In this document: one piece after another, positions 2 to 62,745 of the stretch | Position numbering within the stretch: the first letter of the stretch is position 1 | Layout of the letters: each line of letters begins with the position of its first letter | Assembly: GCA_964016885.1 (NCBI GenBank) | Contig: OZ024742.1 | Span: 255,254,001-255,318,000, forward strand | Length of the DNA: 64,000 nt | Direction of reading: 5' to 3' | Source of the DNA: Eledone cirrhosa | Taxonomy: Eukaryota | Translations under genes and position numbers: made by a program | Notes under the pieces: model-generated | Database searches by the model: none | What the model saw: only the letters and a program-made list of their open reading frames with translations | What the model was told of the DNA's origin: nothing

Positions 2-1885
2 CTTCGAAAAGACCATAAAACGGGCAGTGACCCTGTCGCGGGACCACCAACACGGCCAGTCTGTGGAGCTAACATTGCTAGTAACTACAGACTGTCCTAC
101 TTCCTCTCCCTGATCATACGCCCCATCATCGAAATGTCCCCAGATGTATGTGACAGCACGGAGGACCTCCTCAGCAGAATCGGCGTGAGTAACCGATCTA
201 GGGACCTAACAAACTGCATAATAGGTAGTATGGATGTTGTGTCCCTGTATCCATCTATTGACGTGGATTTTGCTGTGGAGAAATGCGTAGAAATGATCAG
301 TGAGAGCAATGTTGAGTTCCGTGGGATTGATACCAGTGAGCTGGGACTCCTACTTAAACTTACCTATAGTAATAATTACCTAGACACATATGACCTTAGC
401 AACCTGTGCCCTACAAGACCAGCAAGAGGCAGACCACCTACCATTACCTCAATGGCCAAGAAAACCCACACAGATAAATGGAACGGGTGGACCAGAGCCA
501 TACGGACACCCGAAAACCACGATGAACTGAAGAAAATTATTGCACATGCGGTAGGGGCCAGCATAAAACTAACCCTTAAGGAACATATGTTCAAATTTAA
601 TGGAAAAACATATGCACAAGAGGAAGGAGCAGCCATTGGTGTTAGCATTGCAGGCGACATAGCTAACTTATTCATGGTATGGTGGGACGGTAGACTTAAA
701 CTTAAGCTTAAAGAACAATTAGAAGACCCCTTAACCCTGATAATGTACTCCCGCTACGTTGATGATATAAACATCGTAGTTAAGACACCCCCACTAGAGA
801 ACAGTCAGGAACTAGAGAAAAACACAATGGAAAGCATCCAGCAAATAGCTAACTCCATCCACCAGAGCATTAGAGTTACTATAGACTACCCAAGTAAACA
901 CCCCAACCATCGATTACCTGTACTAGACACAGAGCTCTGGTTAGATACCATTAATAACAAAAAACAAATCCTCCATTCCCATTATACCAAACCCATGACT
1001 TCCAAACATCTGATCCACCGAAACTCGGCCGTTTCGGACCATACCAAAATCAACATGCTGATTGCGGATTTGGTACGGGTGATGAGAAACGTGTCCCGCA
1101 TGTGCAACCCCGAAGAACTAGAGAGACACATACAACACTTCATACACCGTATGCAGTTCTCTGGCTACAATCAGAGAGATAAAATCAGAGTGTATAGAGG
1201 AGCCAGAACCAAATGGGAAAAAATGGTAAATAATGACATAAATGGGACCTGCCCCTTGTATAGGAGCTAATTTTGGAATAGAATAGAAAGAACTAGGAAC
1301 AAGGCTAATAGAATAAACTGATGGTATGATAGCAATAAATACCAGAGTGTAATGTTCATCGATACAACCCTTAGAGGTGAATTAGCTTACAAATTTAGAA
1401 GGGCCCTAAATAAACATAAACTCAATATTAAGATAGTAGAAAGACCAGGTACCTCCTTAAAAACACTTATTAGCAAGACATACCCTTTTCAAAGACCCTC
1501 ATGTATAGATAAGAAATGTATAACCTGTAAAATAAACCCCCATATTAACTGTAAAACTAGAAATGTAGTGTATAGCATAAGATGTACTGAAGGACAATAT
1601 AGAGACAAAAATATAGTGTACATAGGTGAGACAGCTCGTAGTGTAAGGGAACGGATAAATGAACACTGGCGAGACCTTCAAGATAATAAAGAATCATCTG
1701 TGCTCTACCAACATGCTAAAATAGAACACAAGGGTAAATTAGAGAACATAGAAATAAAAATAGAATCTACACACAGAAAAGACGCAATGTTTAGACAAAT
1801 TACAGAGGCAATAAACATAAAAGAATTACAACCAAAATTAAATAGAAAATATGAGTGGAACAGCAACATCACAACTTACAATTAA
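2..1885 (+). pseudogene. Penelope-like element ORF (RT + C-terminal GIY-YIG endonuclease), cut by window start, two in-frame stops
   Basis: One frame from nt 2: RKDHK..RPV, MDVVSLYPSI, QEEGAAIG, RYVDD, Cys linker CIDKKCITC, VYSI..YIGET..R..EH. ORFs 134-1270 and 1352-1885 share a frame, separated by TAA 1268 and TGA 1319. Confidence 0.93.
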
Positions 1886-2082
1886 GGACAAAATGAAAAC
1901 ACACACATAGAACAAACAACCAACCAGTAACATGTAAATAAACAAATAAATAAATGAACATAAACACACACAGACACCCGGATGTGGCGCATGCGCAGAC
2001 TGAACACACAACACACACACAGAAACAAAATGGCGTAGGACAGAACAAAGGAGAGGCACAGAAACAAAGAAAGGAATCCCCA

Positions 2083-2125
2083 GTCACTGAAGAGGTCACA
2101 GAGTGTGTGACGAAAGAACTATGAC
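2083..2125 (+). ncRNA. Minimal type I hammerhead ribozyme in the PLE 3' pseudo-LTR
   Basis: GTCA-CTGAAGA-G-GTCACA(gagtg)TGTGAC-GAAA-GAAC-TA-TGAC; stems I and II pair; about 200 nt after the PLE stop codon. Confidence 0.85.
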
Positions 2126-2338
2126 AATATATAAACAACTATCTGGTTGTGGAACCAACCAACCAACCAACCAGAAATTTATAAATTTATTATAATAAAT
2201 TGAAGTGAAAGCAATTGGTGCGTGTGTTTCTTATTGGCAACATGACCCTCCCAAAGTATAACAATATCGGTTTCAACACACGATTTCAGATAAAGAATCT
2301 TGCTAAACAAATTCAGAAACGAAATATATATGTATATA

Positions 2339-5531: not shown

Positions 5532-5956
5532 ATGTTGAAAAGGTAACACACTAGAGAGAGAGAGATACAGTGCGCTATCAATAAAACAGGGAAAAACCAC
5601 CAGTGTATGGAATCTATAACCAATGAAAGACAGAGTATAGACACGATAAGTAAAAATATAAATTAAAGAGTAAATAAATACCTCTATAACTATATAACTT
5701 TATAACGTTATATAGTTATAGAGGTATCTATTTACGCTTTAATTTATATTTTTAATTATCGTGTCTATACTCTGCCTTTCATAGGTTATAGATTCCATAC
5801 ACTGGTAGTTTTTCCTTGTTTTATTGATAGCGCACTGTATCTCTCTCTGGTGTGTTACTTTTTCAACATATTGTATTTTAAAGAGCTCAGGATTTCCTCT
5901 CCTTTGAGCACATTATTTACAGGGAACGGCGAGAGTCTATGGCTCCGTTAATGTAT

Positions 5957-9065: not shown

Positions 9066-9238
9066 TATATATATATATATATAAGCAAGATGTATGGTAG
9101 GTCGTATGTGAATCGCGATGATCACGTCTGACCTACCAAATATGTGACGGTAGCTAGTTAAGCTCTATGCGTATAAGCAGAGCAGAAATATTAGTGAAAA
9201 AGAACAAAGGAACTATTATGACATTATAACAAGTTTAT

Positions 9239-9285
9239 TGCCGACAGCCGTTTCGTCCGACCATATAGTGGGACTTTTCAAGGCA
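9239..9285 (-). ncRNA. Type I hammerhead ribozyme, U3-A8 core, GUC site
   Basis: Reverse complement of 9513-9559. Confidence 0.85.
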
Positions 9286-9512
9286 TATAACATGTTATTG
9301 TAAGATCATTATTTACATCAACGTATCACTCAAGACTAGCAATTTGAAATTGTGGTATACATCCCTGACCCCCGACAACTAATATAAAAGAGCCCCCTTA
9401 GAATATAGACCCCAACTATACAAGCGGAGCTGCGGATGTATACCACAATTTCAAACTGCTAGTCTTGAGTGATACGTTGATGTAAATAATGATCTTACAA
9501 TCACATGTTATA

Positions 9513-9559
9513 TGCCTTGAAAAGTCCCACTATATGGTCGGACGAAACGGCTGTCGGCA
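9513..9559 (+). ncRNA. Type I hammerhead ribozyme, U3-A8 core, GUC site
   Basis: TGCC-TTGAAAA-GTCC(12 nt)GGAC-GAAA-CGGCTG-TC-GGCA. Confidence 0.88.
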
Positions 9560-9719
9560 ATAAACTTGTTATAATGTCATAATAGTTCCTTTGTTCTTTT
9601 TCACTAATATATATATATATATATATATACTGAAATAAATGTTAAGTGAAAATATCCAAGAGTAAGAGCACTTACTCCATAGGACGAGTTTAGTATAAAT
9701 AATTACAACAGGGACATAA

Positions 9720-12727: not shown

Positions 12728-15113
<2,386 letters not shown>

Positions 15114-15579: not shown

Positions 15580-18500
15580 CATCATCATCATCATCACCAT
15601 TTTATGTCCGTTATTCCAGGCTAGCATGGGTTAGACAGGTTGTCCTGCTGTGGGCAGTAGCCAGTCGGCTGACCATGCCTTCCTCATACGGGAACTGATT
15701 CTGGCTTGATATCTACAGCTGGATGCCCTTCCTAACACCAACCTCATTTACAGTGAGTGCTGGGTGCATTTTTTCCGTGGCGCCAACACGTCCACTTTAC
15801 AGTGTGGGCTGGGTGCTTTTTGGACGTGGCACCTCCACGACCACTTTGCAGTGGGAGGGTGTGGAGGCATATTGTCTATATGCTTCAACTTCAGCTTGTA
15901 CACATGGGGGGTCGGGTCTTCTGTATTACTGCGTAACGCCAGAGGTCACGGTCGTGTGCCATCGCCTTTGAGAGGTGTAATTGGGTAAGGTCGGCTTTTA
16001 TCACCTCATCCCAGGTCTTCTTGGGTCTCCCCACTCCGCGGTTTCAATTGACTTCTAGTGCACCTTTTTATGCAGCTGTCATCCTTCATACGCATCACAT
16101 GTCCATACCAGCGCAACCACCCCTCCTGCACACAGCATTTGATTCCTCTTATGCTCAGTCTCTCTCTCAATTATTTTATGCTTTGCAGTTCGCGTATATT
16201 ACTATTAGACATCCATCGGAGCATGCAAGCTTCGTTTCTTTCTAATCTGCGCCAGTTTACTACACACAGCGCCAGGTTTCACCACCATGTAACATTGGTG
16301 TTCGTATACACGCATCATGCAGTCTGCCTTTCATTTTGAGAGAAAAGCCTTTTGTAGCTAGCAGTGGCAGTGGCTCCCTGAACTTCTTCCATCCCGTTCT
16401 TAACATAATTATTGTACTTTCCGAACACCCACCTCCGCTGCTAATTTGGTCACCTAGATAGCAGAAGCTGTCTACTGTTTCTACAGAGCCCTCCCAGAGT
16501 TTGGTGGTATTTGTTTCCGGTGGCTGTCCCAGCACAGCTGCTACATGCGAAGCCTACATCCTTAGTTAAGCTCCCTGAGATCCCACTACATCTCTTGTGT
16601 ACCCATTATTTGCATTTGGGGCAGAGAATGGAGTTCCTACCTACACCTTTTCGACATACTGAGCAAGGCCATTTCCCTGAGATGATCTGGGTTCTGTTTT
16701 CTCGTCTACTTACAAGGACCTCAGTCTTTGTCAGGTTGACTTTGAGACCCTTTCTTTCTAGTCACTGCTTCCATGTTTGAAATTTCTTCTTTAGTTCTAC
16801 CATAGATTCAGCTAAAAGTGCGAGGTCATCTGCATACAGGAGTTCCCATGGGCATCCGGTCTTAAACTTTTCCGTTATTACCTGCAAAAATATGATGAAC
16901 AGGAGAGGGCTAAGAAGAGAGCCCTGGTGGACACCGACCTGTATGCTAAATTCCTCGCTATAGTCATTGCTAACTCTAACTTTGCTGACTGCTCCCCTAT
17001 ACATGGTTTGTACAGCTTTCACAAGCCATTCATCTACTCCTAGTTTTCTAAGAGCCCACCAGATTATAGCAGGGGTAACTCTGTCAAAGGCTTTCTCTAG
17101 ATCGAGGAATGCCAGGTAGAGCGGCTTTCTTTTAGCTAGGTACTTTTCCTGTAACTGCCTCACAAGGAAGAAGGCATCAGTGGTGCCTCTTCCTGGTACA
17201 AACCAAAATTGCATCTCATCTAGTTTCAGCCGGTCCCTAATCAACTGTGCTATAACTCTTTCTGTTACTTTCATGACCTCGTCCATCAGCTTTATACCTC
17301 TATAGTTTCCTCTATCTAGTGCATCACCTTTACCCTTTTAACAGTTGACAATGATGCTGATGCACCAATCCTTTGGTATGACACCTTCTAGTATTACCTG
17401 GTTAACAATACGTGTGGTTATGGTGTGACCTACCGACCCAGATGCCTTCAGCATCTCGGCAGCTATACCCGATGGACCGGTTGCCTTCCCCGTCTTCATA
17501 TATTTGATTGTCTTACTTACTACGCTGCTGCTGACTTGTACTGCTAGCCCATCTATAGGGTCTACTTGGGGTAGGGTCTCTTTCCCATGCAATCTCCTCA
17601 TTTAGTAATCTTTCATAATGGCTCTTCCACGCATCTTTTTTTCTCAGCATTTGTGAGGGCAAGCTCACCTTTATCATTCCGGATACACTTCTCTCCAACG
17701 ACATCACAATTCTCTGTGACACACTGCCTCGCAATCTTGAACACCTCCTGTTTATTGTCCTCCCGTTGCAAATCATGCTTGAATTTTCTATCCCTCGCTT
17801 CCCACCTAGCTAAGTATACTTATCGCCTAGCTTCCCACCTGGTCTCTATGTAATGTACCCTGCTTCCCCCTTTCTTCCATTCTTTCCATGCCTGTCTCTT
17901 GGCCTTAACTGCCTCATCTACCTTATTGTTCCACCACCAAGTCACTCTCCTCCTGCCTGTGGTCTTACTCCAGCCACAGATATCATCCGTCGCCTTTAGT
18001 AAGTTATATTTTAGGAACTCCCAGTGCTCTTCTACATTGAATGTCTCTATCTGTTCTTCTTTTCTGTCATAGGCGCCGAGAAAAATATCTTTAAATCTGT
18101 TACTGGCTGAGGGGTCTTTCAGGTTCCAGATCTTTCTTCTCCAGGTTGGCTTCTGTTTCCAGGTTCGTCTAGTTCTGACTGTGAGGTCGTTGACGACTAA
18201 GTTATGTTGGGAGGTACATTTCTCATCAGGGAACGCTTTTGTGTTTACGACCGTCCATCTGTCACGTCCTCTGATGAGGATAAAATCTATCTGACGAGAA
18301 TGCTCCCCTGATCTATAGGTGATCAGTTGGTTGTCGGGTTTTTTGAAGTTTGTGTTACATATCGACGTGTCATTGGCGTCGCATAATTCTAGAAGCCTGA
18401 AGCCTTCTTCATTTCGTGTGCCAACCCCCATGGCCTCCATGGACTCTATAGAAGCCGTCACGGTGTTTAACCTACGTGTCCGTTAAAATCTCCTGCAATG

Positions 18501-19700: not shown

Positions 19701-20690
19701 TAAATATATGACCCCAACGGCAGAGCTCAGCCATTTTCTACCCACCCGAGTCGTTAGGGGGTTTAAGGGCGAGGTAAGTCCTACCTAATCGGTGTTTGCA
19801 TGCAGTTACCAGTTCGTCTTTTTTGTTTAGGAGGGAGTTGGTCCTTCGTAAACAGCATTTGTAATGTTTCCTCCGAGCATAAGTTACACGGACGGCGTCT
19901 TCCCGTGTAGGAGTTAGCTCTGGACAGTAAGCTCCAAGTAAGATTGTATGTTATGTTATTATCTTGGAGATCCCAGATGTGGCCCGAAAATGTAGTGGCA
20001 TGTCGCCGGACCGGGTTTCGGAACGTATTCCGGTGTTAGTAAGAGCCGGGTCTTAAAGTCACGGTTAATCTTATATAAGCTTTGTTGGAGGTGTCCGTCC
20101 TCACGTTGCACTGGTAGATCACGTTACGTTCTCGGCATCTGTTGTTGAGGGGGCACGTAGATCTATCAGGGCAGTTACACCTCCTGGTCGGCTCTCCGCT
20201 AATGTCTAGGTTGTTTCTTCCATAGATGTTGAGTTTTTTGTTGTTTGAGGAGACGATGTTTTGTGCGAAGTTTGGTGTGGAGCTGTAGGAGAGTTTGATA
20301 GTGTTTTTGTTGATTATGTTGTGGTAGCCGTGTTTTGGTGGGAAGTGTTTTTCGAGGAGCCTAAAGAAGATTTTCCCGATAGGTGTTGCCACCTCGGCAT
20401 TGTGGGGAGGATTGAACCACGTTACGTGGCGTGAGCGGAGGCGTCACCTGCTGGTTCCGCTAAGGGAAGCTGGATAAAAGGATATTTCCTCCCAGAAGCT
20501 GCTTCGCTTGAGGGCCTGGTTGTAATGAGGCGCATGTTCGTCGAATATCTGCTCATTAACGGACAAACGAGATATGCGGAGGGAAATGTTTTTAACCAGA
20601 TTATTGGTGATGTTTCTGGGATGGTTAGAGCGGCGGTGGATGTAGTGCAGGTTTTCGTTTAGTTTCCTGTATGGGTAGTACAGATCACTT
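19698..20690 (-). mobile_element. Penelope-like element 3' fragment (RT thumb + GIY-YIG) with degenerate hammerhead end
   Basis: WFNPP, IGKIFFRLLEKHFP..TIKLSYS, CNC..CPL..C, NVIYQC, terminal ELVTACKHR; 3' half of an HHR next to the (TA)n tract. Confidence 0.85.
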
Positions 20691-26767: not shown

Positions 26768-27379
26768 TTAAAGCATTCTCAAGATAACATCCTTGCTGTT
26801 GTGTTAGTTAAATAGATTCAAAATTTAACTGAAATAAGGGTTAGATTATCTAGAATGAAAAGTTGGCTTCTCTCGCTGAAAATTAATCTCTCTTGAGCCT
26901 CCAAACTAAATTCTTGCAAAGCATGTTAAGCTGATACTTTCTAAAGAGATGACATTTCAAATAAAGGGGAGGATAAACCATCTGGTATAAATTATAATCC
27001 AAATCTAATTTTCAAGAGCTAGGAATAGATTTTTATGTCAATCTGTATTTGTTCAACCTAGTGGGATTTATGTTAGTGAATTATTGGCAAAACTTTAACT
27101 CTTTCATTACCAGAGACACTGCCTATGATCTTCAAGTAAGTTTGAATTTCCATGATGATAAGTTCACTCATATTACAGTGACTCTGAAGCTTTGCAAATG
27201 CTATTGTGGAGCCATGGTTAACACGTTTGAACTACATTTGCTCTCTTGTTGCCACAGTCCAGGTCAGCTCATTTAGCACACTACATTGAATAACATCATA
27301 GGATCACAGGTAAACTATCTAAGAACCTAGACTTTATATGTGGCCAATGCTCAGGTGCAATAAGTAGCAAGTGTCCAAA

Positions 27380-28377
27380 GGATACTAGCTCCTTCCATTG
27401 CCCAGATGGTTCTATAGAAATAGTAGATACTTTCCGTTACCTGGGTGACGAAATCAGCAGTGGTGGAGGGTGTTCTGAAAGTACAGTAGCCAGAGTCAGA
27501 ACGGGATGGAAAAAGTTCAGAGAGCTTATACCGCTGTTGGCTACAAAAGGTTTCTCATTAAAAATGAAAGGCAGATTGTATGATGCCTGTATACGAACAC
27601 CAATGCTTCATGGCAGTGAGATATGGGCATTACGTGCAGAGTACCTGCGTAGACTGGAAAGGAATGAAGCATGGATGCTCCGTTGGATGTGTAATAGTAA
27701 TATACGTGAACGGCAAAGCATAAATGAACTAAGTGATAAATTAGGAATAAGCGGGATCAGATGCTGTTTACTTGTGAGAAGACTACGTTGGTATGGTCAC
27801 GTGATGCGCATTAAAGACGACAGCTGCATAAAAAAGTGCAGAGCAATCAAAATTGAAGGTAGTTACGGAGTAGGTAGACTAGAAAAACCTGGGATAATCT
27901 GATAAATTCCGACCTCACACACTTACATCTCTCTAAGACAATGTCTCTGGACCGAGACCTTTGGCGCTACGCAGTAATACGGAAGACCCGCCTTGCCTAT
28001 GTACAAAGCGAAACCTACAGTCAGTAGGCACCTCTTAACCAAATATACACCCCAATCTACTACTCCTACCCTATCCTCCCACTCCCACCAACAGCACGAG
28101 AAAATAAGATCGAGGTCGTGTAGGTGTCACGACAAAAAACACACACAGTCCACGCTGTAATGTGGCCGTGTAGATAACACGGTAAAAAGTTCCCAGTTCC
28201 ACACTGTAAATGTGGTTGGTGTTAGGAAGGGCATCCAACCGTAGAAAACCTCCCAGATAGTCCTATATGAGCGAGACACGTTCACCCGACCAGCCTTGCC
28301 TTAAGTGGGACAACTCTCGTCTAACCCATCCTAGCGTGGAAAACGGACGTTAAACGAAGATGATGATGATGATGATT
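27380..28377 (+). mobile_element. RTE LINE 3' fragment with tail
   Basis: ORF 27537-27902 ([21 protein letters not shown]), 3' UTR and (GAT)n tail. Confidence 0.9.
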
Positions 28378-28942: not shown

Positions 28943-29268
<326 letters not shown>

Positions 29269-35905: not shown

Positions 35906-35981
<76 letters not shown>

Positions 35982-36092
35982 ATATATATATATATGTATA
36001 TGTATATGTATATATATATATATGTATATATGTATATATATATATATAGATAGATAAATATACACGGGTGTGTATGATTGTGTATAGAAGAT

Positions 36093-36497
36093 TATATTAA
36101 TAAGAGGAATTCCAACTGTGTCTGATTTACTCGTTATATTTACAATACTTTAAAATGTATAATGGTATTATAATGAAATAGTATGCTAGAATATTAAATG
36201 TTAAGTGTTAATTGAACAAGTACTTACATGCTTTCGAAATCTTCAGGTTCCTAATGTGTGGTGACAGTCAAGTTTGCAATTTTCAACTGTTGAAATTCAA
36301 CAGTTGAAAATTGCAAACTTGACTGTCACCACACATTATGAACCTGAAGATTTCGAAAGCATGTAAGTACTTGTTCAATTAACACTTAACATTTAATATT
36401 CTAGCATACTATTTCATTATAATACCATTATAAATTTTAAAGGATTGTATATATAACGAGTAAATCAGACAAAGTTGTAATTCCTCTTATTAATATA
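36093..36497. repeat. TA-flanked palindrome (arms about 200 bp, 1 nt centre) with hammerhead-like core lacking stem II
   Basis: Centre at 36295; CTGAAGA-TTTC-GAAA at 36344-36358 and its mirror. Confidence 0.92.
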
Positions 36498-36505
36498 TAT
36501 GTATA

Positions 36506-36624
<119 letters not shown>

Positions 36625-37351
36625 GTATATATATATTTGTATATATATATATGAATAAAGTTAGTCCTTCATCAGTGATCTTCCAACCATCATTGGTATT
36701 TCATCGCTTTAAAGACCATATACCTCCGGTTGGTGCGAGCAACGGCGAAAAAAGTCGTTGGGACACGTAAATAAGGGGGACACGAGTGTAAACAAACAAA
36801 AATGGTGAAGCAACGAAAAGTGAGGAAGAAGGAGTCAAGTCCCAAATTTCTATGAATTTAAATTCGGTGAAATCATGAACGAGAGAGAATAAAGACCATC
36901 AAACCTGGTTGGAATGTGAGCAAGGAAGGAATTCCGTACAGGTCTAACGGGAGGAAGAAGGGGTCTAGTCTGTGGATTCGGTGAACGTAAGTTCTGTGAA
37001 ATCGTAGACGAGAGAGAGAAAAAGCGACCTGCCAGACCAAGGGTGCGAAAGAAAAGAATTACGCACAGGTCAAACGGGAAGAAGGAGGAGGAGAGGTAGT
37101 AACAGAGAATGAGTGAGTGAAGGGTGAGGAAGAGGCTAACAGAGAGAGTGACTGCTAGAGAGGGTAATGATACAGAGAAAGAGGAACCAGTAAGAACGAA
37201 ATAGACGAGTAACAGCGGGGAAAAAAATATGTGTAAATATGAGAATAAACGTGCTGCGGGGTTGCTAATGGGTTACATATGAATAAAGTTAGTCCTTCAT
37301 CAGTGATCTTCCAACCATTCACAGACTAGATCCCTCCTTCCTCCCGTTAGA

Positions 37352-49282: not shown

Positions 49283-49326
<44 letters not shown>

Positions 49327-49557
49327 GAAACACACAGATACATGCGGACACACACATATATACATGAATGCATCCGCACCCAACTGTGAGTTAAGGGTGC
49401 CAACTTCACCGATGTTGCTCAATGAATGACTGGGACAGACCAATTCAGTTTGAACCAGACTGAACCAGTATCAGAGTTAAAAATACATTATGAAGAGAGA
49501 AGAAACATTTAGATATAATTAGTAATAAAATGTATCATACCTAAACTGTTCCTAAAT

Positions 49558-49645
49558 TCCTCGACTACGTAGTTTCGTGGCATAAACAAAAACAATATAT
49601 CAAAGATATAGAGTCCTTGCGAGGTCTGCCGACTTATCAAGAGGA
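49558..49645 (-). ncRNA. Type I hammerhead ribozyme (mirror copy)
   Basis: Reverse complement of 49831-49918. Confidence 0.85.
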
Positions 49646-49830
49646 TACCTCATTTTACTAGTCTCAAGAACGCGTCTACACGACGTGAGAAAGAATCCCA
49701 AAAGGCGGAGGGGGAGATAGTCACGCGATATAACGTGGACCGTTATATCGCGTGACTATCTCCCCCTCCGCCTTTTGGGATTCTTTCTCACGTCGTGTAG
49801 ACGCGTTCTTGAGACTAGTAAAATGAGGTA

Positions 49831-49918
49831 TCCTCTTGATAAGTCGGCAGACCTCGCAAGGACTCTATATCTTTGATATATTGTTTTTGTTTATGCCACG
49901 AAACTACGTAGTCGAGGA
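49831..49918 (+). ncRNA. Type I hammerhead ribozyme, UUGAUAA core, expanded stem II
   Basis: TCCTC-TTGATAA-GTcGGCA(about 44 nt)TGCCAC-GAAA-CTACGTAG-TC-GAGGA. Confidence 0.88.
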
Positions 49919-50101
49919 ATTTAGGAACAGTTTAGGTATGATACATTTTATTACTAATTATATCTAAATGTTTCTTCTCTCTTCATAATGTATATATATA
50001 TATATATATATATAGTATAAATATAAAAATTCTTTTTTTTTTTAGGAAAACCATTCAAGGAGTGAGTAGAAATTTAGAGAGATATTTATTTGATCATATA
50101 A

Positions 50102-54359: not shown

Positions 54360-56415
54360 AATACAAGTAGGGATATCAATCCTAAAGAGATAGTGCTCTT
54401 CTCAATACGTGTGCAGTACCAGTCAAAACAATTTTTTGCACCTCGTGCAGAGAGGGTAAACCAGGAATCATTCGCAAATATTGTTCTGTTCTGTTCTTGA
54501 TCATTCCCAGTCCTCCCACAATCCCTGGTATTGTAACGGCCTTGAGGTGCCACATTTTCTCAATTTCAATAAGCAGATCTTTATATTTTCGTAGCTTGTC
54601 AAATTCTTTTGCCGCGCTATTGTGATCACATGGGATGCTCATATCTATCAATAAACAGACCTTGTTATGTTGATCTTTTACAATGATCTCAGGTCTATTT
54701 GCTTTTCTGGTCCTGTCAGTATTTACAGGAAAGTCCCAGAGAATTGTTTATTTTTCGCCTTCAGTTATAGCCTCAGGGTGATGATTGTACCACTTGTCTT
54801 CAGCATTGATTTTGTAATGCCGACATATTACCCAGTGTAGATATTGGCCAACTCTGTCATGTCCATATTTGTATTCTACTGCTGTTAAAACTTTACATCC
54901 AGAGACTAAGTGATCCACTGTTTCAACCCCAGCATTGCAGAATCGGCACTTTGGGTTTATTCCGTTTTTCATCACATTGACCCGGTAATTACGAGTCAAT
55001 AAGCTTTGATCTTGGGCAGCTAAGATGAAGCCTTCACTCTCCGCCCTTAGCCCTGAACTACGTAGCCACTGATGGGTGTGCTTTTGGTCAACATCAGCTT
55101 GTTTTCTACGGGCCATGCAGAGGTTTCTGCTCCCAATTTGATGCTAATTGTCCTTGCCCTTTTGTTTTTGCCAGTGATTTTATGTTCCTAGCAGCATCAG
55201 TTTCTTTAGTCTGTCCAGTCTGGGTATCAAGCATGAGATCAGTAGCATATGTTTTGCTCTCCTTCAAGATAGAATAAAGATTCTTACTTTTTTCATGCTT
55301 TTCAACAAGTTTCAGCATACAGACGTTAGTTGTTTCAAGGTATTTGGCCAGTCCAATGACGGTGGTCTTATAAGCAAGTTCAAATTGGATCAGGCTACGG
55401 CCTCCTTGAGTTCTAGGAAGGTAAAGACGATCCACATCTGCTTTTGGGTGGTGCATCATATTACAGGTCAGTAGCTTACGGACTTTGGTGCCGATTCTTT
55501 TGATTTCACTCATATTCCAGTTCAACACACCGAAGCTATAAGTGACAACTGGGACTGCCAAAGAATTTATGGCTAGCACCTTGTTACGAGCGTTTAGTTC
55601 TGATCTCAGAACTGCACGTACTCTCCTGTAATATTCTTTCCTTATCCTCTCATCCATAGTAGCATGCTGTATGCCAGAGCCCTCATTAATCCCTAAGTAT
55701 TTATAGGTTTGTTCCTGCTCAAGTTCCTTTATGATTGTTTCAGCATCAACTGAGTGTGAGTTGACAAGCTTCCCCTTCTTGAAAGTGACTTTTGCACACT
55801 TGTCAAGTCCAAACTCCATCCTGATGTCATCGCTAAACGTTTTTACTGTCCACAAAGGGCCTTCCAGTTCATCATTATCTTTGCAATATAGCTTCACATC
55901 ATCCATATAACATAGGTGGCTAATTTCTTTGTTGTCAATTCTATAACCGTATCCTGTTCTATTAAGTTCGGATGTAAGGGATATTACAGCTATGCAGAAA
56001 AGCAAGAGTGAAAGTGAGTCACCCTGGAAGATACCACAATTGATGTTTATATTCCTAGAGCACAGTACCCCAGTGGAATGAGACAACTGGAGATTTGTGT
56101 TCCATAATGACATATTGTGTTTCAGGAAGTTTGAGATCACAGGTGAGATTTTGAAGATGCCCAGTGATTTCAGAATCCATGAGTGTGGTATGCTGTCAAA
56201 GGCTTTATTATAATCGACCCATGCAGAACTGAGATTTCTGTGTTTATTATGCAGTTCTCAAGGATCATACGATTAATCAAAAGTTGATCTTTGCAAACAT
56301 ATGAACCTCGTCGGCACCCTTTTTGTTCAATGGGGAAAAGATTGTTCTCCTCCAAAAACACGTATGCTTTTTCCATGAGAATAGAGGTTGATAGTTTATA
56401 AGTGGTGGGCTCGAT
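54360..56415 (-). mobile_element. R4/Dong-like non-LTR retrotransposon (RT + CCHC + restriction-like endonuclease), 5' truncated
   Basis: EQKGCRRGS, GIFQGDSLS, YMDDVKLY, YKYLG, AAQDQSL.TRNY, CRFC..ETVDHLVSGC, IDMSIP..K..KYKDL. Confidence 0.92.
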
Positions 56416-58213: not shown

Positions 58214-58759
58214 TAAAAAAAAAAAAAAAGAATGTGAATTGGTATCATGTGTATATTAAAAAAAAAAGAGAAAGAAAAAAAAACATTTAATACAGAACAA
58301 CACACTTGATTCTGATATGGCTGTATTGACCGATCTAAACATATTTCTCTGTAACACTTAACATCAAACTCGTCATATGTGCAAAACGAACATCCAAAGT
58401 ATTTACACAAAAACACACAGCAATTGTATGAATGTTTTTTCTTTTTTTCTCCTCTTCTTCTTTTCTCTGGCTAAAATTTTTGAGGATGACAAGATGGCGG
58501 CTTTCTTCTCCATCAATAGTGTTTTGGGCGCGAAATAGTCCGCCATGTTGGTTTTAGTTTTAAATTCCCTGCCTATACCTTATTAATGACATCGCTCGGT
58601 TAGTCGCTCCTTTGCATATTGTCTCGGATGCATTCTTTTTGCTGTCCAGTTGTTTGACAGAGAAAAACAACCGATTTTGTTTTCCCTTTGCCTTGTGTTG
58701 GAGACATTTTTCCAGACGGAAACGATTTTTTTTTTTTGCAAATTATCTACGGTATACCA

Positions 58760-59557
58760 ATGGCATCTCATTCTGTTCTACCTATGTACACGGGCGACGT
58801 AAGGTTATGGTTCGCCCAACTCGAAGCATTTTTCGAGGCGAACAGAATTGACGAGGCACAACAACGTCCTCTGGTCCTTAGTGCAATTCCGCCGACACTT
58901 ATCCCAGCGATTAAGGTCCTGGTGTTAGAGACACCCACCGACGCGACGTACAAGTCTCTGAAGGCTGAAATACTCAGCCGAACTGCACAGTCCGCAGAAA
59001 AAAGGTTTAGGGCTCTGGTCCATCTGGAGCATATCGGTGATGGCACCCCATCGAACCTCCTAAGGCGAATGAAGGACCTAACGGAGGGGTCGGTAGCGGA
59101 AACTGCCATGCTGAAGCAGTTGTTCTTCTCGCGCCTACCGACCAACATTAGGGATACTTGCACGGGGGCTCAGCTTGCCGCCTCTGCGGACAAAGTTTTC
59201 GAAGTTACGAGTGCTGGAGGCAGCGAAGCCCTTGTCGCTGTTTCCCAACCAGCTCAGGCCACACCTGGCCATGCCATCTGCGCGGCAGCTCCTACAGAGA
59301 GCTCAGTTATTATGGCGATGCAGAGGGCCATTCAGCAACTCACCCTGGAACTCCAGAAGATGAAGGTCTGGTGTGATGCCCGTTCGCTCCTCCGCAGCCA
59401 CGGGAGATCTCAATCTTTAGACGCCGCTCCAAGTCACCAGCTTCATCTTTATGCTGGTAGCATGAGCGATTTGCCGAGAGCGCGAACCACTGCGTGCAAC
59501 CTTGCTCGTTTCATAAGGCGGGAAACGCCAAAGAGGTCCGCTGATGGGGGCAGTTGA
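58760..59557 (+). pseudogene. gag: Gypsy gag
   Basis: LWFAQLEAFF, LKQLFFSRLP; CHCC motif C-W-*-H-x9-C-x3-C in a shifted frame near 59452-59510. Confidence 0.85.
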
Positions 59558-62500
59558 CCTCAACATAAAGCCACCAGACCGCCATTTCTTCATTAAGGAC
59601 CTTGGGCCGGGAAGAGGTTTCCTCGTGGATACAGGAGCCTCCTGTAGTATTTGGCCGGTCCATTGCCTGAAAGATACCCCCGTAGAGTCATCCGTTACTC
59701 TGCAGGCCGTTAATCACTCGTCTATAAAGATGTACGGGCAAATCTCGCTTCCTCTCGAATTCCTAAATCTTCGTAGGGATTTTAAGTGGATTTTTACGGT
59801 TGCCGATTTGCCATACCTTTTCTTAGGAGCGGATTTCCTCCACAACTTCTCTTTGACTGTGGACGTCCGTGGCCAACGCCTGGTGGCGACATCACCGGTT
59901 TTTCAATTCATGGCCCGAAAGCCAATGCTCCAACAGTCAGCTCCATATTCTTCATCGCTGCCGCTGGAGACGCCTACCATTGTTAGGTTCTTTCCCGGAG
60001 CTCACCGATGGAAATTTTCGAGTCACTGAGCCAACACACTCAACTAAACAATTCATTTCCACCACCGGTGCTCCAGTGTTTTCGCGTCCACGCCGCTTAC
60101 TGGCGGACAAATTAAAGGCAACACGGTCCGAGTTCGACCATATGCTGCAGCTGGGCATTATTCGCCCATCTACAATTCTTTAGGCTTCACCGTTACACAT
60201 GGTGCCCAAGACTTCCGGTGACTGGAGACCCACTGGGCATTATAGGAGGTTAAATGCTATGACCGTCCCGGATAGGTATCCCATTCCCCATCTCCAGGAT
60301 TTCGCATCTTCATTGCAGGGGTGTAAGATTTTCTCAAAACTAGATTAGTGCGAGCTTACCACCAAATTCCGGTCAGAAAGGAGTATATTCCGAAAACGGC
60401 GATTACAACTCCTTTCGGATCCTTCGAATTTTTTACCTTGCCTTTCGGACTCAGGAACGCCGCTAGCACTTTTCAGCGGTTCATAGACGAAGTCACTCGT
60501 GGTCTGGACTTCGTTTATGCATACATAGACGATCTTATCGTCGCTAGTTCCTCTCCGGAATAGCATATGCAGCACATGCATCTCTTATTTCGGCGACTTC
60601 AGGATTACTGCGTTCGTGTGAATCCCGCAAAATGTGTTTTCGGTTCCACTTCGCTAAATTTTTTAGACCACCTCATCGACGCCGAAGGTATTAGGCCGCT
60701 TCCACAGCGAGTTCAAGCCATACAGGATTTACATCCGCCTACTACACTTCATCAGTTGCGTCACTTCTTAGGCCTAATCAATTTCTATAGGCGTTTCGTT
60801 CCTCATTGTGCTAATTTGCTATCTTCCCTTACTGACATTTTGAAAAATAGTCGTAAGAAGAATAAGGATATTTCCCTGACACAAGGACAGCTTCAAGACT
60901 TCTAGACTGCCGAGACAGCACTCGCTAGTTCATCTTTGCTAGCCCACCCGGTACCAGAAGTCAAGCTTTCGCTTTGTGTTGATGCATCTGATACCGCTGT
61001 GGGAGCAGTTTTACAGCAGTTCAATGCTGGAAGCCAACAACCTTTGGCATTTTTCTCAAGGAAGCTGAAACCAGCAGAAACGCGTTACTGCACGTTTGGG
61101 CGGGAATTATTAGCCATATATCTGTCGGTGAAACATTTCTCTCATATTCTTGAGGGGAGAAATTTTACTGTTTTAACCGACCACAAACCTCTGACCTTCG
61201 CTTTGAGGGCTAAAGCCGACAGATATTCGCCCAGAGAGACAAGGCACCTGAATTACGTTTCGCAATTTACAAATGATATCCAGCATATTGCTGGCTCGCA
61301 TAACATAGCTGCAGACGCATTGTCACGTTTGCCAATCAGCTCCATCTCGTCATCCCAGGAGATCGACTTAGGTCGTTTAGCTGCAGACCAACCTGTACTC
61401 CAATCGTTGGATACTCTTTCTACCGAATTTGCGACTTGCATCTTCAAATATCTGCTCTTGTCGACCAACCATCGACAGGCAGATTCTATGTGATGTATCT
61501 ACGGATTCACCACGACCATATGTTCCTGAGACTCACCGTCGAATTGTGTTCCTTACTTTGCACAGCATTTCTCACCCAGGAATTTCTGCCACAGTAAAGC
61601 TTATAACGGCTAAATTTTTCTGGCCCAATATGAGGCGAGAAATTACTGTCTGGTGCCGTTCCTGCACACAGTGTCAGAGATCTAAAATCCACAGACACAT
61701 CCAGACTCCACTTGGTACTTTCAGTGCTCCAGATGCTCGGTTTCAGCACATCCACATTGATATCGTTGGACTTTGGCCATTCAGCAGTGGATATTCGTAC
61801 CCCTTGACCTGTATCGATCATTTTTCGCGATGGCCTGAAGCTATCCCCTTAAAAGATATTACTGCTGATACTGTAGCGCGTGCCCTGGTATCAGGGTGGA
61901 TTACCCGCTTTGGGGTACCAACTAGAGTCACCACAGACCGTGGTAGACAATTTGAATCTCATCTTTTCTCTGAGCTCACAAAGATCATTGGCGCTCAACG
62001 GATTCGGACGACAGCTTATCATCCTGCTTCAAACGGAATGGTGGAACGATTCCACCGCCAATTAAAGGCCGCTCTTCGCACCTATCCAGACTCTCAACGT
62101 TAGAGCGAGTACCTTCCTATTGTGTTGTTAGGAATTCTGTCATCAATAAAGGCGGACCTTGGGTTCTCCCCGGCCGAATTACTGTATGGTGCTCCTCTAG
62201 CGTTGCCTGGGCAAATGCTTGCCTCTGTTGATCTTGCTTTCCAGGACCCTGTTTCCTAGGTATCTCGTTTGCGCTCCTATTTTCAGGACTTACCGCCCAT
62301 GAATACTAGGAAACAAACTATTAAAGCTGCAGTCCCGAGGGATATTGCTTCGTGGACACATGTATTCGTCAGAAACGATGCGGTTACTCCACCCCTCACA
62401 CAACCATACTCTGGACCCTACCGTGTGTTAGCACGTACTGACAAACATTTCACTGTAGACATTAAGGGGTCAAGAGAGACAATTTCGGTGGATAGACTAA

Positions 62501-62745
62501 AAAGACCATACAATGACGCTCATACACCCGAGCCACAAATACCCCAATCTTTCTCTCTTGTGCATACACCTTCTCCTTCTGCCCCACCTTCACCTACATA
62601 CAAGACCATGACCCGTTCCGGTCGAAGAGTCCACTGGCCCAAAAAACTCTGCCAAACTGTTTTCATGGGAACTGGCCACTGGAGCCGTTTTTGTTTTTCT
62701 CTTTATTGTATTACCATGTACCTTCCGTTACCATTTCATGCCTGA
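59544..62745 (+). pseudogene. pol: Gypsy pol (protease, RT, RNase H, integrase), disrupted
   Basis: LVDTGAS; PFGLRNA, YIDD; DAS..RELLAI..TDHKPL..ADALSR; H.ISHPG..C..C; [21 protein letters not shown]; GPY motif. Confidence 0.93.

Follow-up and report, generated by a model that had tools for sequence, protein, structure and literature searches.

We analysed a window of 64,000 nucleotides from the genome of Eledone cirrhosa, in which an inverted element lies at positions 49323–49993 with both of its outer ends adjoining (TA)n (Table 1). The arms of its palindrome match at 253/253 positions, the first mismatch falling at step 254, and this is the sole mismatch-free one among the seven long local palindromes that our script listed for the window. 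The CpG observed/expected ratio of the arm is 1.43, against 0.61 for the window as a whole. In all of this the original prediction, made from the letters alone, was borne out: it had described a perfect palindrome with CpG-rich 253-bp arms around a 5-nt loop, and the parts of a hammerhead ribozyme that it named (5-bp stem I, UUGAUAA, a hairpin inserted in stem II and a palindromic stem III) are present in each arm. The element is asymmetric in that 160 bp of family sequence lies outside the left arm. In the coordinates of the 588-nt monomer introduced below, the copy reads from 588 to 176 on the minus strand and then from 173 to 428 on the plus strand, which is less than one monomer per arm, and its twin hammerheads lie on opposite strands and point away from each other.

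Table 1. Features of the inverted element and its target arrays, in window coordinates.
Feature	Position	Strand	Basis or remark
Left (TA)n target array	49288..49322		Its final bases are shared with the TATAT after End A of the monomer
Long arm, monomer 588 to 176, 413 bp	49323..49735	-	Starts at fixed End A (...TTCTAAA/TATA)
Tail between the two fixed ends, 160 nt	49323..49482	-	Structured as RNA, z -5.6
Left palindrome arm, 253 bp	49483..49735	-	Arm comparison (right arm 49741..49993)
Type I hammerhead motif, U3-A8 core	49558..49645	-	Predicted cut between 49563/49562; putative activity
Head-to-head junction TGGAC	49736..49740		TG untemplated; GAC = monomer 173-175, right arm; 5' ends 3 nt apart
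Short arm, monomer 173 to 428, 256 bp	49738..49993	+	Ends at fixed End B (...CATAATGTAT/ATA)
Type I hammerhead motif, U3-A8 core	49831..49918	+	Predicted cut 49913/49914; putative activity, from the 5'-end excess in other copies
Right (TA)n target array	49994..50014		Sequence

Each arm reads TCCTC-TTGATAA-G...C-GAAAC-TACGTA-GTC/GAGGA, with a stem II region of 57 nt that includes TATATC-TTT-GATATA, and with the self-complementary ACTACGTAGT. We call this motif a putative hammerhead from inspection of the motif and its pairing. When folding is constrained to the hammerhead topology, the U3-A8 core, GAAA, GUC and three helices expected of a type I hammerhead are all present at -20.7, compared with -21.8 for the free fold, a cost of 1.1 kcal/mol; the stem III palindrome could in addition form a 10-bp dimer duplex (-12.9). 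In the global fold, with the hammerhead in its own context, stem I does not form, and the core positions vary among genomic copies at 0.0083 against a background of 0.0089, which means that the core is not more conserved. Rfam detected no hammerhead, whether at its gathering score or with the threshold relaxed to E<=10, probably because of the long helix II, and its microRNA matches are hairpin look-alikes far under their gathering scores. The accessible text of PMC4209133 describes U3-A8 cores, palindromic helix III and pairs of hammerheads on opposite strands 100–700 bp apart. With the hammerheads of Schistosoma Cercyon PLEs described there, our motif shares the replacement of C3-G8 by U3-A8, a short, palindromic and dimerisable helix III, a 5-bp helix I and the G10.1-C11.1 pair, and it differs from them in an extension of helix II of ~50 nt and in an activity that is predicted. 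A second, antisense HDV-like ribozyme considered near monomer 173–176 was dropped by eye because it had no fitting topology.

The monomer, its copy number and its targets can be read directly from the genome (3.0 Gb, 1,796 contigs). A search with the palindrome arm found 21 places at 95–100% identity, and another part of the repeat gave 1,025 candidates; the copies are dispersed over many contigs, and many are 99–100% identical. As a ruler we used locus L002, in which a 588-nt monomer stands in tandem (about 590–593 nt in older copies) with the hammerhead at 266–353, the predicted cut at 348/349 and two fixed ends, End B at 428 and End A at 588. L002, L059, L073 and other loci hold monomers in tandem that all include a full type I hammerhead, and arrays run to as many as 11 pieces. 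The monomer has a GC content of 42% and no LTR, its fold beats those of shuffled sequences (z -6.1), and ARAGORN found in it no tRNA gene or tRNA-derived head. An open reading frame for a reverse transcriptase and GIY-YIG endonuclease is absent from the monomer and from the sampled copies, which hold no ORF at all. Monomer 445–457 (window 49454–49466, minus strand) resembles what we take to be the consensus of the polymerase III A-box; no B-box or tRNA fold was found with it.

Could these copies be truncated terminal stumps of an autonomous PLE and not an independent non-autonomous family? PLE insertions are mostly 5'-truncated and often inverted, according to the parts of PMC8557442 available to us, and the hammerhead is similar to that of a Hydra-type PLE family of this genome. 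However, the sequence upstream of the ribozyme runs, in every sampled copy, into the previous monomer and never into an ORF, the longest ATG frame is 74 aa, and a 621-nt contig from an independent run spans the monomer in permuted order, all of which makes the stump explanation very improbable. The family instead resembles the animal non-LTR retrozymes (PMC7229834; bioRxiv 10.64898/2026.07.22.740005; both cited from partial text) in that its monomers are non-coding, stand in tandem and have a single type I hammerhead, in its GC content below 45%, in its dispersed, multicopy distribution and in a monomer within their range of 51–972 bp. The preprint derives retrozymes from PLE terminal repeats, and PMC7229834 reports linear and circular retrozyme RNAs of 170–400 nt and proposes mobilisation by PLEs; our ~590-bp monomer, described here from genomic DNA, exceeds that size. 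Neither source, in its accessible portions, takes up fixed double 3' ends, head-to-head inversions or (TA)n targeting for retrozymes; the word "inverted" occurs 0 times in PMC7229834 and once, in a reference title, in the preprint. Across the literature that we covered, mostly the main texts of open-access papers, there is no account of this 588-nt hammerhead family or of 5' ends at a ribozyme cut. Judged by its sequence, the family of the window copy is a new one among the animal non-LTR retrozymes, and its ends are of the Penelope type.

All insertions are anchored in (TA)n, and their two 3' ends, A and B, lie 160 nt apart on the RNA. Exact patterns of End B plus (TA)n occur 1,984 times and those of End A plus (TA)n 1,046 times, both counts being lower bounds and the control of each being 0. 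We classified 69 insertions, 17 picked via ruler 1–175, 29 via End B and 23 via End A, after leaving out one near-duplicate from the End B set and seven from the End A set that duplicated members of other sets; the End A and End B samples were picked with a pattern containing (TA)n, and the 17 others were not. This sample comprises 37 head-to-head inversions and 32 single arms, 19 of which end at A and 13 at B. No inversion among the 37 pairs A with A or B with B: 32 are A+B, three run off the locus edge on one side and two have one non-canonical end, so that every fully resolved head-to-head copy (32/32) carries A on one arm and B on the other. L140, a complex locus from the cut-site set described below, has B-like ends on both sides and was excluded from the variant count.

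The original prediction had also taken the window copy for the youngest member of its class and for a sign of a recently active PLE family. The copy is indeed very young: it differs from the ruler copy L002 at two positions, where it carries the majority alleles (84/105 and 91/105 insertions), and it has 0 private changes relative to 105 sampled insertions. It is not uniquely young, because 7/23 inversions with an arm overlap of >=200 nt also have identical arms (three indel-prone zones excluded). Recent activity is likewise upheld by at least 1,984 insertions, many of them nearly identical, and by the Penelope-type footprint, but the family itself is non-autonomous.

Long perfect palindromes are usually unstable. 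Perfect arms and a loop of only 5 nt would suit a foldback chimera from library preparation or assembly; none of the contigs from four independent runs crosses the palindrome centre, although contigs cannot show absence, and assembly gaps and apparently duplicated loci occur near some copies (L112, L149/L150). Yet the flanks are unmirrored, with a best local score of 8 over 400 bp per side, and the outer ends are the two different canonical ends of the family, each in (TA)n. Three templated bases of the right arm are missing from the left, the monomer is present in independent runs, and the A+B layout recurs in all resolved inversions. We consider it nearly certain that the window palindrome is a real genomic insertion and give an artefact only a few percent's worth of credence.

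The junctions between arms vary from copy to copy. Their positions in the 37 inversions are scattered, with 18 overlapping by >=2 nt, six by 1 nt, seven blunt and six with inserted bases. The 5' ends of the two arms are unequal in 34/37, often by hundreds of bases; they lie <=3 nt apart in the other three (shuffle mean 0.38, p=0.006; p=0.035 for coincidence at 5 nt), these being the only such cases and one of them falling within a cluster of stops at monomer 513–533. In L001, L098 and L151 the ends coincide and the arm lengths differ by exactly the tail. The window copy is of the same class as these coincident-end inversions and is not itself among the 37. The window palindrome is an expected product of the family and not a structure of a special kind, and near-perfect palindromes are not rare among inversions (3/37). 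The stop cluster (515–529 within 513–533; window 49378–49398) holds 12/104 sampled 5' ends where 3.7 are expected and sits in a local hairpin of the 160-nt tail, possibly a pause or protein-binding site. Monomer 176 at first looked like a preferred 5' end (8 of the initial 21 loci), an impression that we rejected because it arose from how these candidates were picked; the exact-pattern count there is 10, three of them internal indels, and is not above controls. Six of seven junctions at monomer 176 (L002, L005, L006, L008, L009 and the window copy) are preceded, at monomer 175, by an A that the young subfamily lacks at this place, which may be chance.

We also counted 5' ends at the predicted ribozyme cut, using exact patterns in which both upstream letters differ from the family. 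The cut site was picked beforehand from the motif and compared with four control positions only. Twenty-five ends fall at the cut (22 after removal of three apparent assembly duplicates), and the 20 of these that were inspected are all true junctions. The controls gave seven ends at 176 (10 minus the three indels), six at 345 (all junctions), three at 351 and 10 at 353, where a single locus was inspected. The count at 351 derives from 19 matches, 18 of them inspected (the 19th is L011), with 14 internal substitutions; the three double mismatches were counted, and two junctions reading GC were excluded. Corrected for letter chance, the excess at the cut is 3.1–4.0-fold (p 2e-6 to 1.4e-4). Both arms of L151 begin at the predicted cut, and L143 and L154 come within 2 nt of it. 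The corrected peak amounts to ~40–45 ends, a small share of all 5' ends, and 515–529 is as enriched; most cDNAs run past the cut site. These data suggest that some templates are self-cleaved sense-strand RNA, and we think it likely that the ribozyme cuts in vivo.

Head-to-head palindromic Penelope junctions have previously been put down to self-priming on an antisense template (PMC3846280, from partial text), in which a strand would fold back and copy its own sequence before the endonuclease resolves the second end. The near-zero loops of the window copy, L096, L098, L103 and L245 and the position of the stop cluster inside a local hairpin are compatible with such a process, whereas the unequal 5' ends of most inversions are not. 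L096 and L098 have no loop and a CG overlap, as from the annealing of two ends; in the window copy neither arm could fully template the other; and in L151 both arms stop at the cut of the sense-strand ribozyme. Self-priming is therefore improbable in our view, and the family-wide A+B pairing, the 160-nt tail and the cut-site ends favor two-primer copying of sense RNA over it.

If copying starts from two primers, the template might be a monomer, a linear multimer or two separate RNAs. We compared substitutions, excluding indel-prone zones, among the pieces of 105 insertions, 75 of which have >=2 pieces over a variable site. Private substitutions, meaning those found in 1/105 insertions of a family with thousands, are common to all pieces in 23 cases (10 spanning the two arms and 13 within a tandem), present in a subset in three and confined to one piece in 102. 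Family alleles are fixed across the array in 397 cases and occur in subsets in five; over all alleles, eight are in a subset and 157 in one piece. Together with the excess of 5' ends at the cut, private variants common to tandem monomers point to templates that were monomeric, possibly circular, and self-cleaved, and the variant pattern fits one monomer copied round and round into both arms. Gene conversion between arms could also yield common private variants, and the private subset variants (L059, L071, L072) fit multimeric templates or gene conversion.

The principal competing account accepts two primers but supposes linear multimers or two RNAs as templates, a ribozyme that is a passenger, and arrays homogenised later by unequal crossover or conversion. 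It can draw on the finding that hammerhead cleavage is dispensable for a PLE in vitro (PMC11167929) and on a proposed local amplification of retrozyme arrays (bioRxiv 10.64898/2026.07.22.740005), as far as the accessible text of each goes, as well as on the three private subset variants and on the many cDNAs that pass the cut site. It is harder to reconcile with the excess of 5' ends at the cut, with 23 private and 397 family variants fixed from monomer to monomer in dispersed arrays that retain intact 3' ends, and with coincident ends in which the arm difference is the exact tail length (L001, L098, L151). We regard this account as unlikely, if by no means negligible. Copying from a single self-cleaved monomer is our preferred reading; both window arms probably derive from one RNA molecule, and we lean slightly toward a circular template.

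The overall layout of the insertions is that of endonuclease-positive PLEs (PMC8557442, PMC3846280, PMC11167929, each cited from partial text): a partial tandem plus inverted head-to-head copy, a one-sided tail, two internal starts, a (TA)n bias, a hammerhead in the terminal repeat and microhomology joins. For such elements PMC8557442 describes tandem and inverted arrangements, tails of 30–40 bp and a (TA)n bias, and also the existence of non-autonomous Chlamys elements. According to PMC11167929, a PLE enzyme in vitro cleaves both strands of the target and extends each of them, initiating at two sites inside the RNA that lie at the boundaries of the tail, and it does so without hammerhead cleavage being required. 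The retrozyme differs from these PLEs in having no ORF and a tail of 160 nt where theirs is 30–40 nt; unlike theirs, its target duplication cannot be seen in (TA)n. We consider it very likely that the insertion was PLE-driven.

Using two PLE fragments from the window as protein queries, we identified two large PLE families that could supply an enzyme. The first, of Hydra type, has the RLRW, DKT and CxCx5C motifs that the accessible text of PMC8557442 assigns to the Hydra clade; the second, of Neptune type, has a Cx4CxxC linker and, in the loci read, open frames of up to 1,085 aa. Pfam returned no family for either protein. Both families have two fixed ends in (TA)n, 80 nt apart in the Hydra type and 60 nt apart in the Neptune type. 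The search for an intact parent PLE, which the original prediction had recommended, found none in the 72 loci of these two ORF-bearing families: BLAST with 7-base words revealed no similarity to the monomer outside the ribozyme, the sole exception being one 31-bp piece at a locus edge. The Hydra-type family (L215–L217), whose ribozyme is the most similar to that of the retrozyme, is like it in its UUGANAA core, U3-A8, the G-(Y)UCGGC start and long extension of helix II, a palindromic helix III, its two fixed ends and its (TA)n targets, and it differs in its 80-nt tail, its more diverged copies and the lack of BLAST similarity outside the ribozyme. We rate the Hydra-type enzyme the lead candidate partner of the retrozyme, at roughly even odds.

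The window fragment of the Hydra-type family (20036–20443, minus strand) belongs to a very abundant element, with 50,009 first-look candidates, that has a long pyrimidine-rich 3' region besides its U3-A8 hammerhead and 80-nt tail. At 1322–2200 (plus strand) lies a young Neptune-type PLE (L218–L226), whose 150 scored copies are 95–97% identical at the amino-acid level and which has long open frames, a C3-G8 minimal hammerhead and the 60-nt tail; it is a candidate for an active enzyme of the genome. An inverted pair of a sibling element at 9188–9610 has 177-nt arms at 99%, a short U3-A8 hammerhead per arm and two ends ~105 nt apart in (TA)n. At 35933–36657, 5557–5848 and 28943–29161, runs of (TA)n enclose palindromes that are older and imperfect, probably decayed insertions of the same general type. 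Elsewhere the window contains an inverted repeat of 426 nt (99%) that encloses a further inverted pair of 299 nt (12728–15003) and, from ORF translations, a Ty3/Gypsy-like LTR retrotransposon with Gag-protease-RT/RNase H-integrase frames (58658–62745). Stretches at 16762–18482, 27294–27902 and 55106–56257 are presumably fragments of RTE-like or other non-LTR retrotransposons, going by their motifs.

We propose, with a probability of about 0.78, that the window copy is a very young retrozyme insertion into (TA)n, likely made by the reverse transcriptase-endonuclease of a PLE acting in trans. Tandem copies would be transcribed, and the hammerhead would cut the RNA into monomers that are probably partly circularised. 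The PLE enzyme would then cut both strands within (TA)n, and each DNA end would serve as a primer for reverse-transcribing the sense RNA, from End A on one side and from End B on the other. The two cDNAs would stop at variable points, at an RNA break or at the ribozyme cut, and their ends would be united by end-joining, often via short microhomology. In the window copy the cDNAs would have stopped at 176 and 173, <=3 nt apart, probably where a single RNA was broken. Stops within 3 nt give a perfect palindrome plus a 160-bp tail; the twin ribozymes are there because the same segment was copied twice, and they accompany a perfect palindrome because the two cDNAs ended together.

More tentatively, and at slightly less than even odds, we hypothesize that one PLE enzyme dimer binds the structured 160-nt tail of one small RNA, circular or opened by its hammerhead, and that it copies this RNA from either edge of the tail into the two ends of a single DNA cut. 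A perfect palindrome would in that case mean that both polymerases had run off at one and the same RNA break, and the surplus of ends at GUC/G would be an in vivo record of template cleavage by the ribozyme. The origin of the inverted copies and tails of PLEs, the role of the hammerhead and the use of retrozyme circles as templates are stated to be open questions in the accessible parts of PMC11167929, PMC8557442, PMC3846280, PMC7229834 and bioRxiv 10.64898/2026.07.22.740005. Given the youth of the family, its thousands of copies and its long tail, the two start sites, the A+B rule and the cut-site ends can be counted genome-wide and could be rebuilt in vitro with a short RNA.
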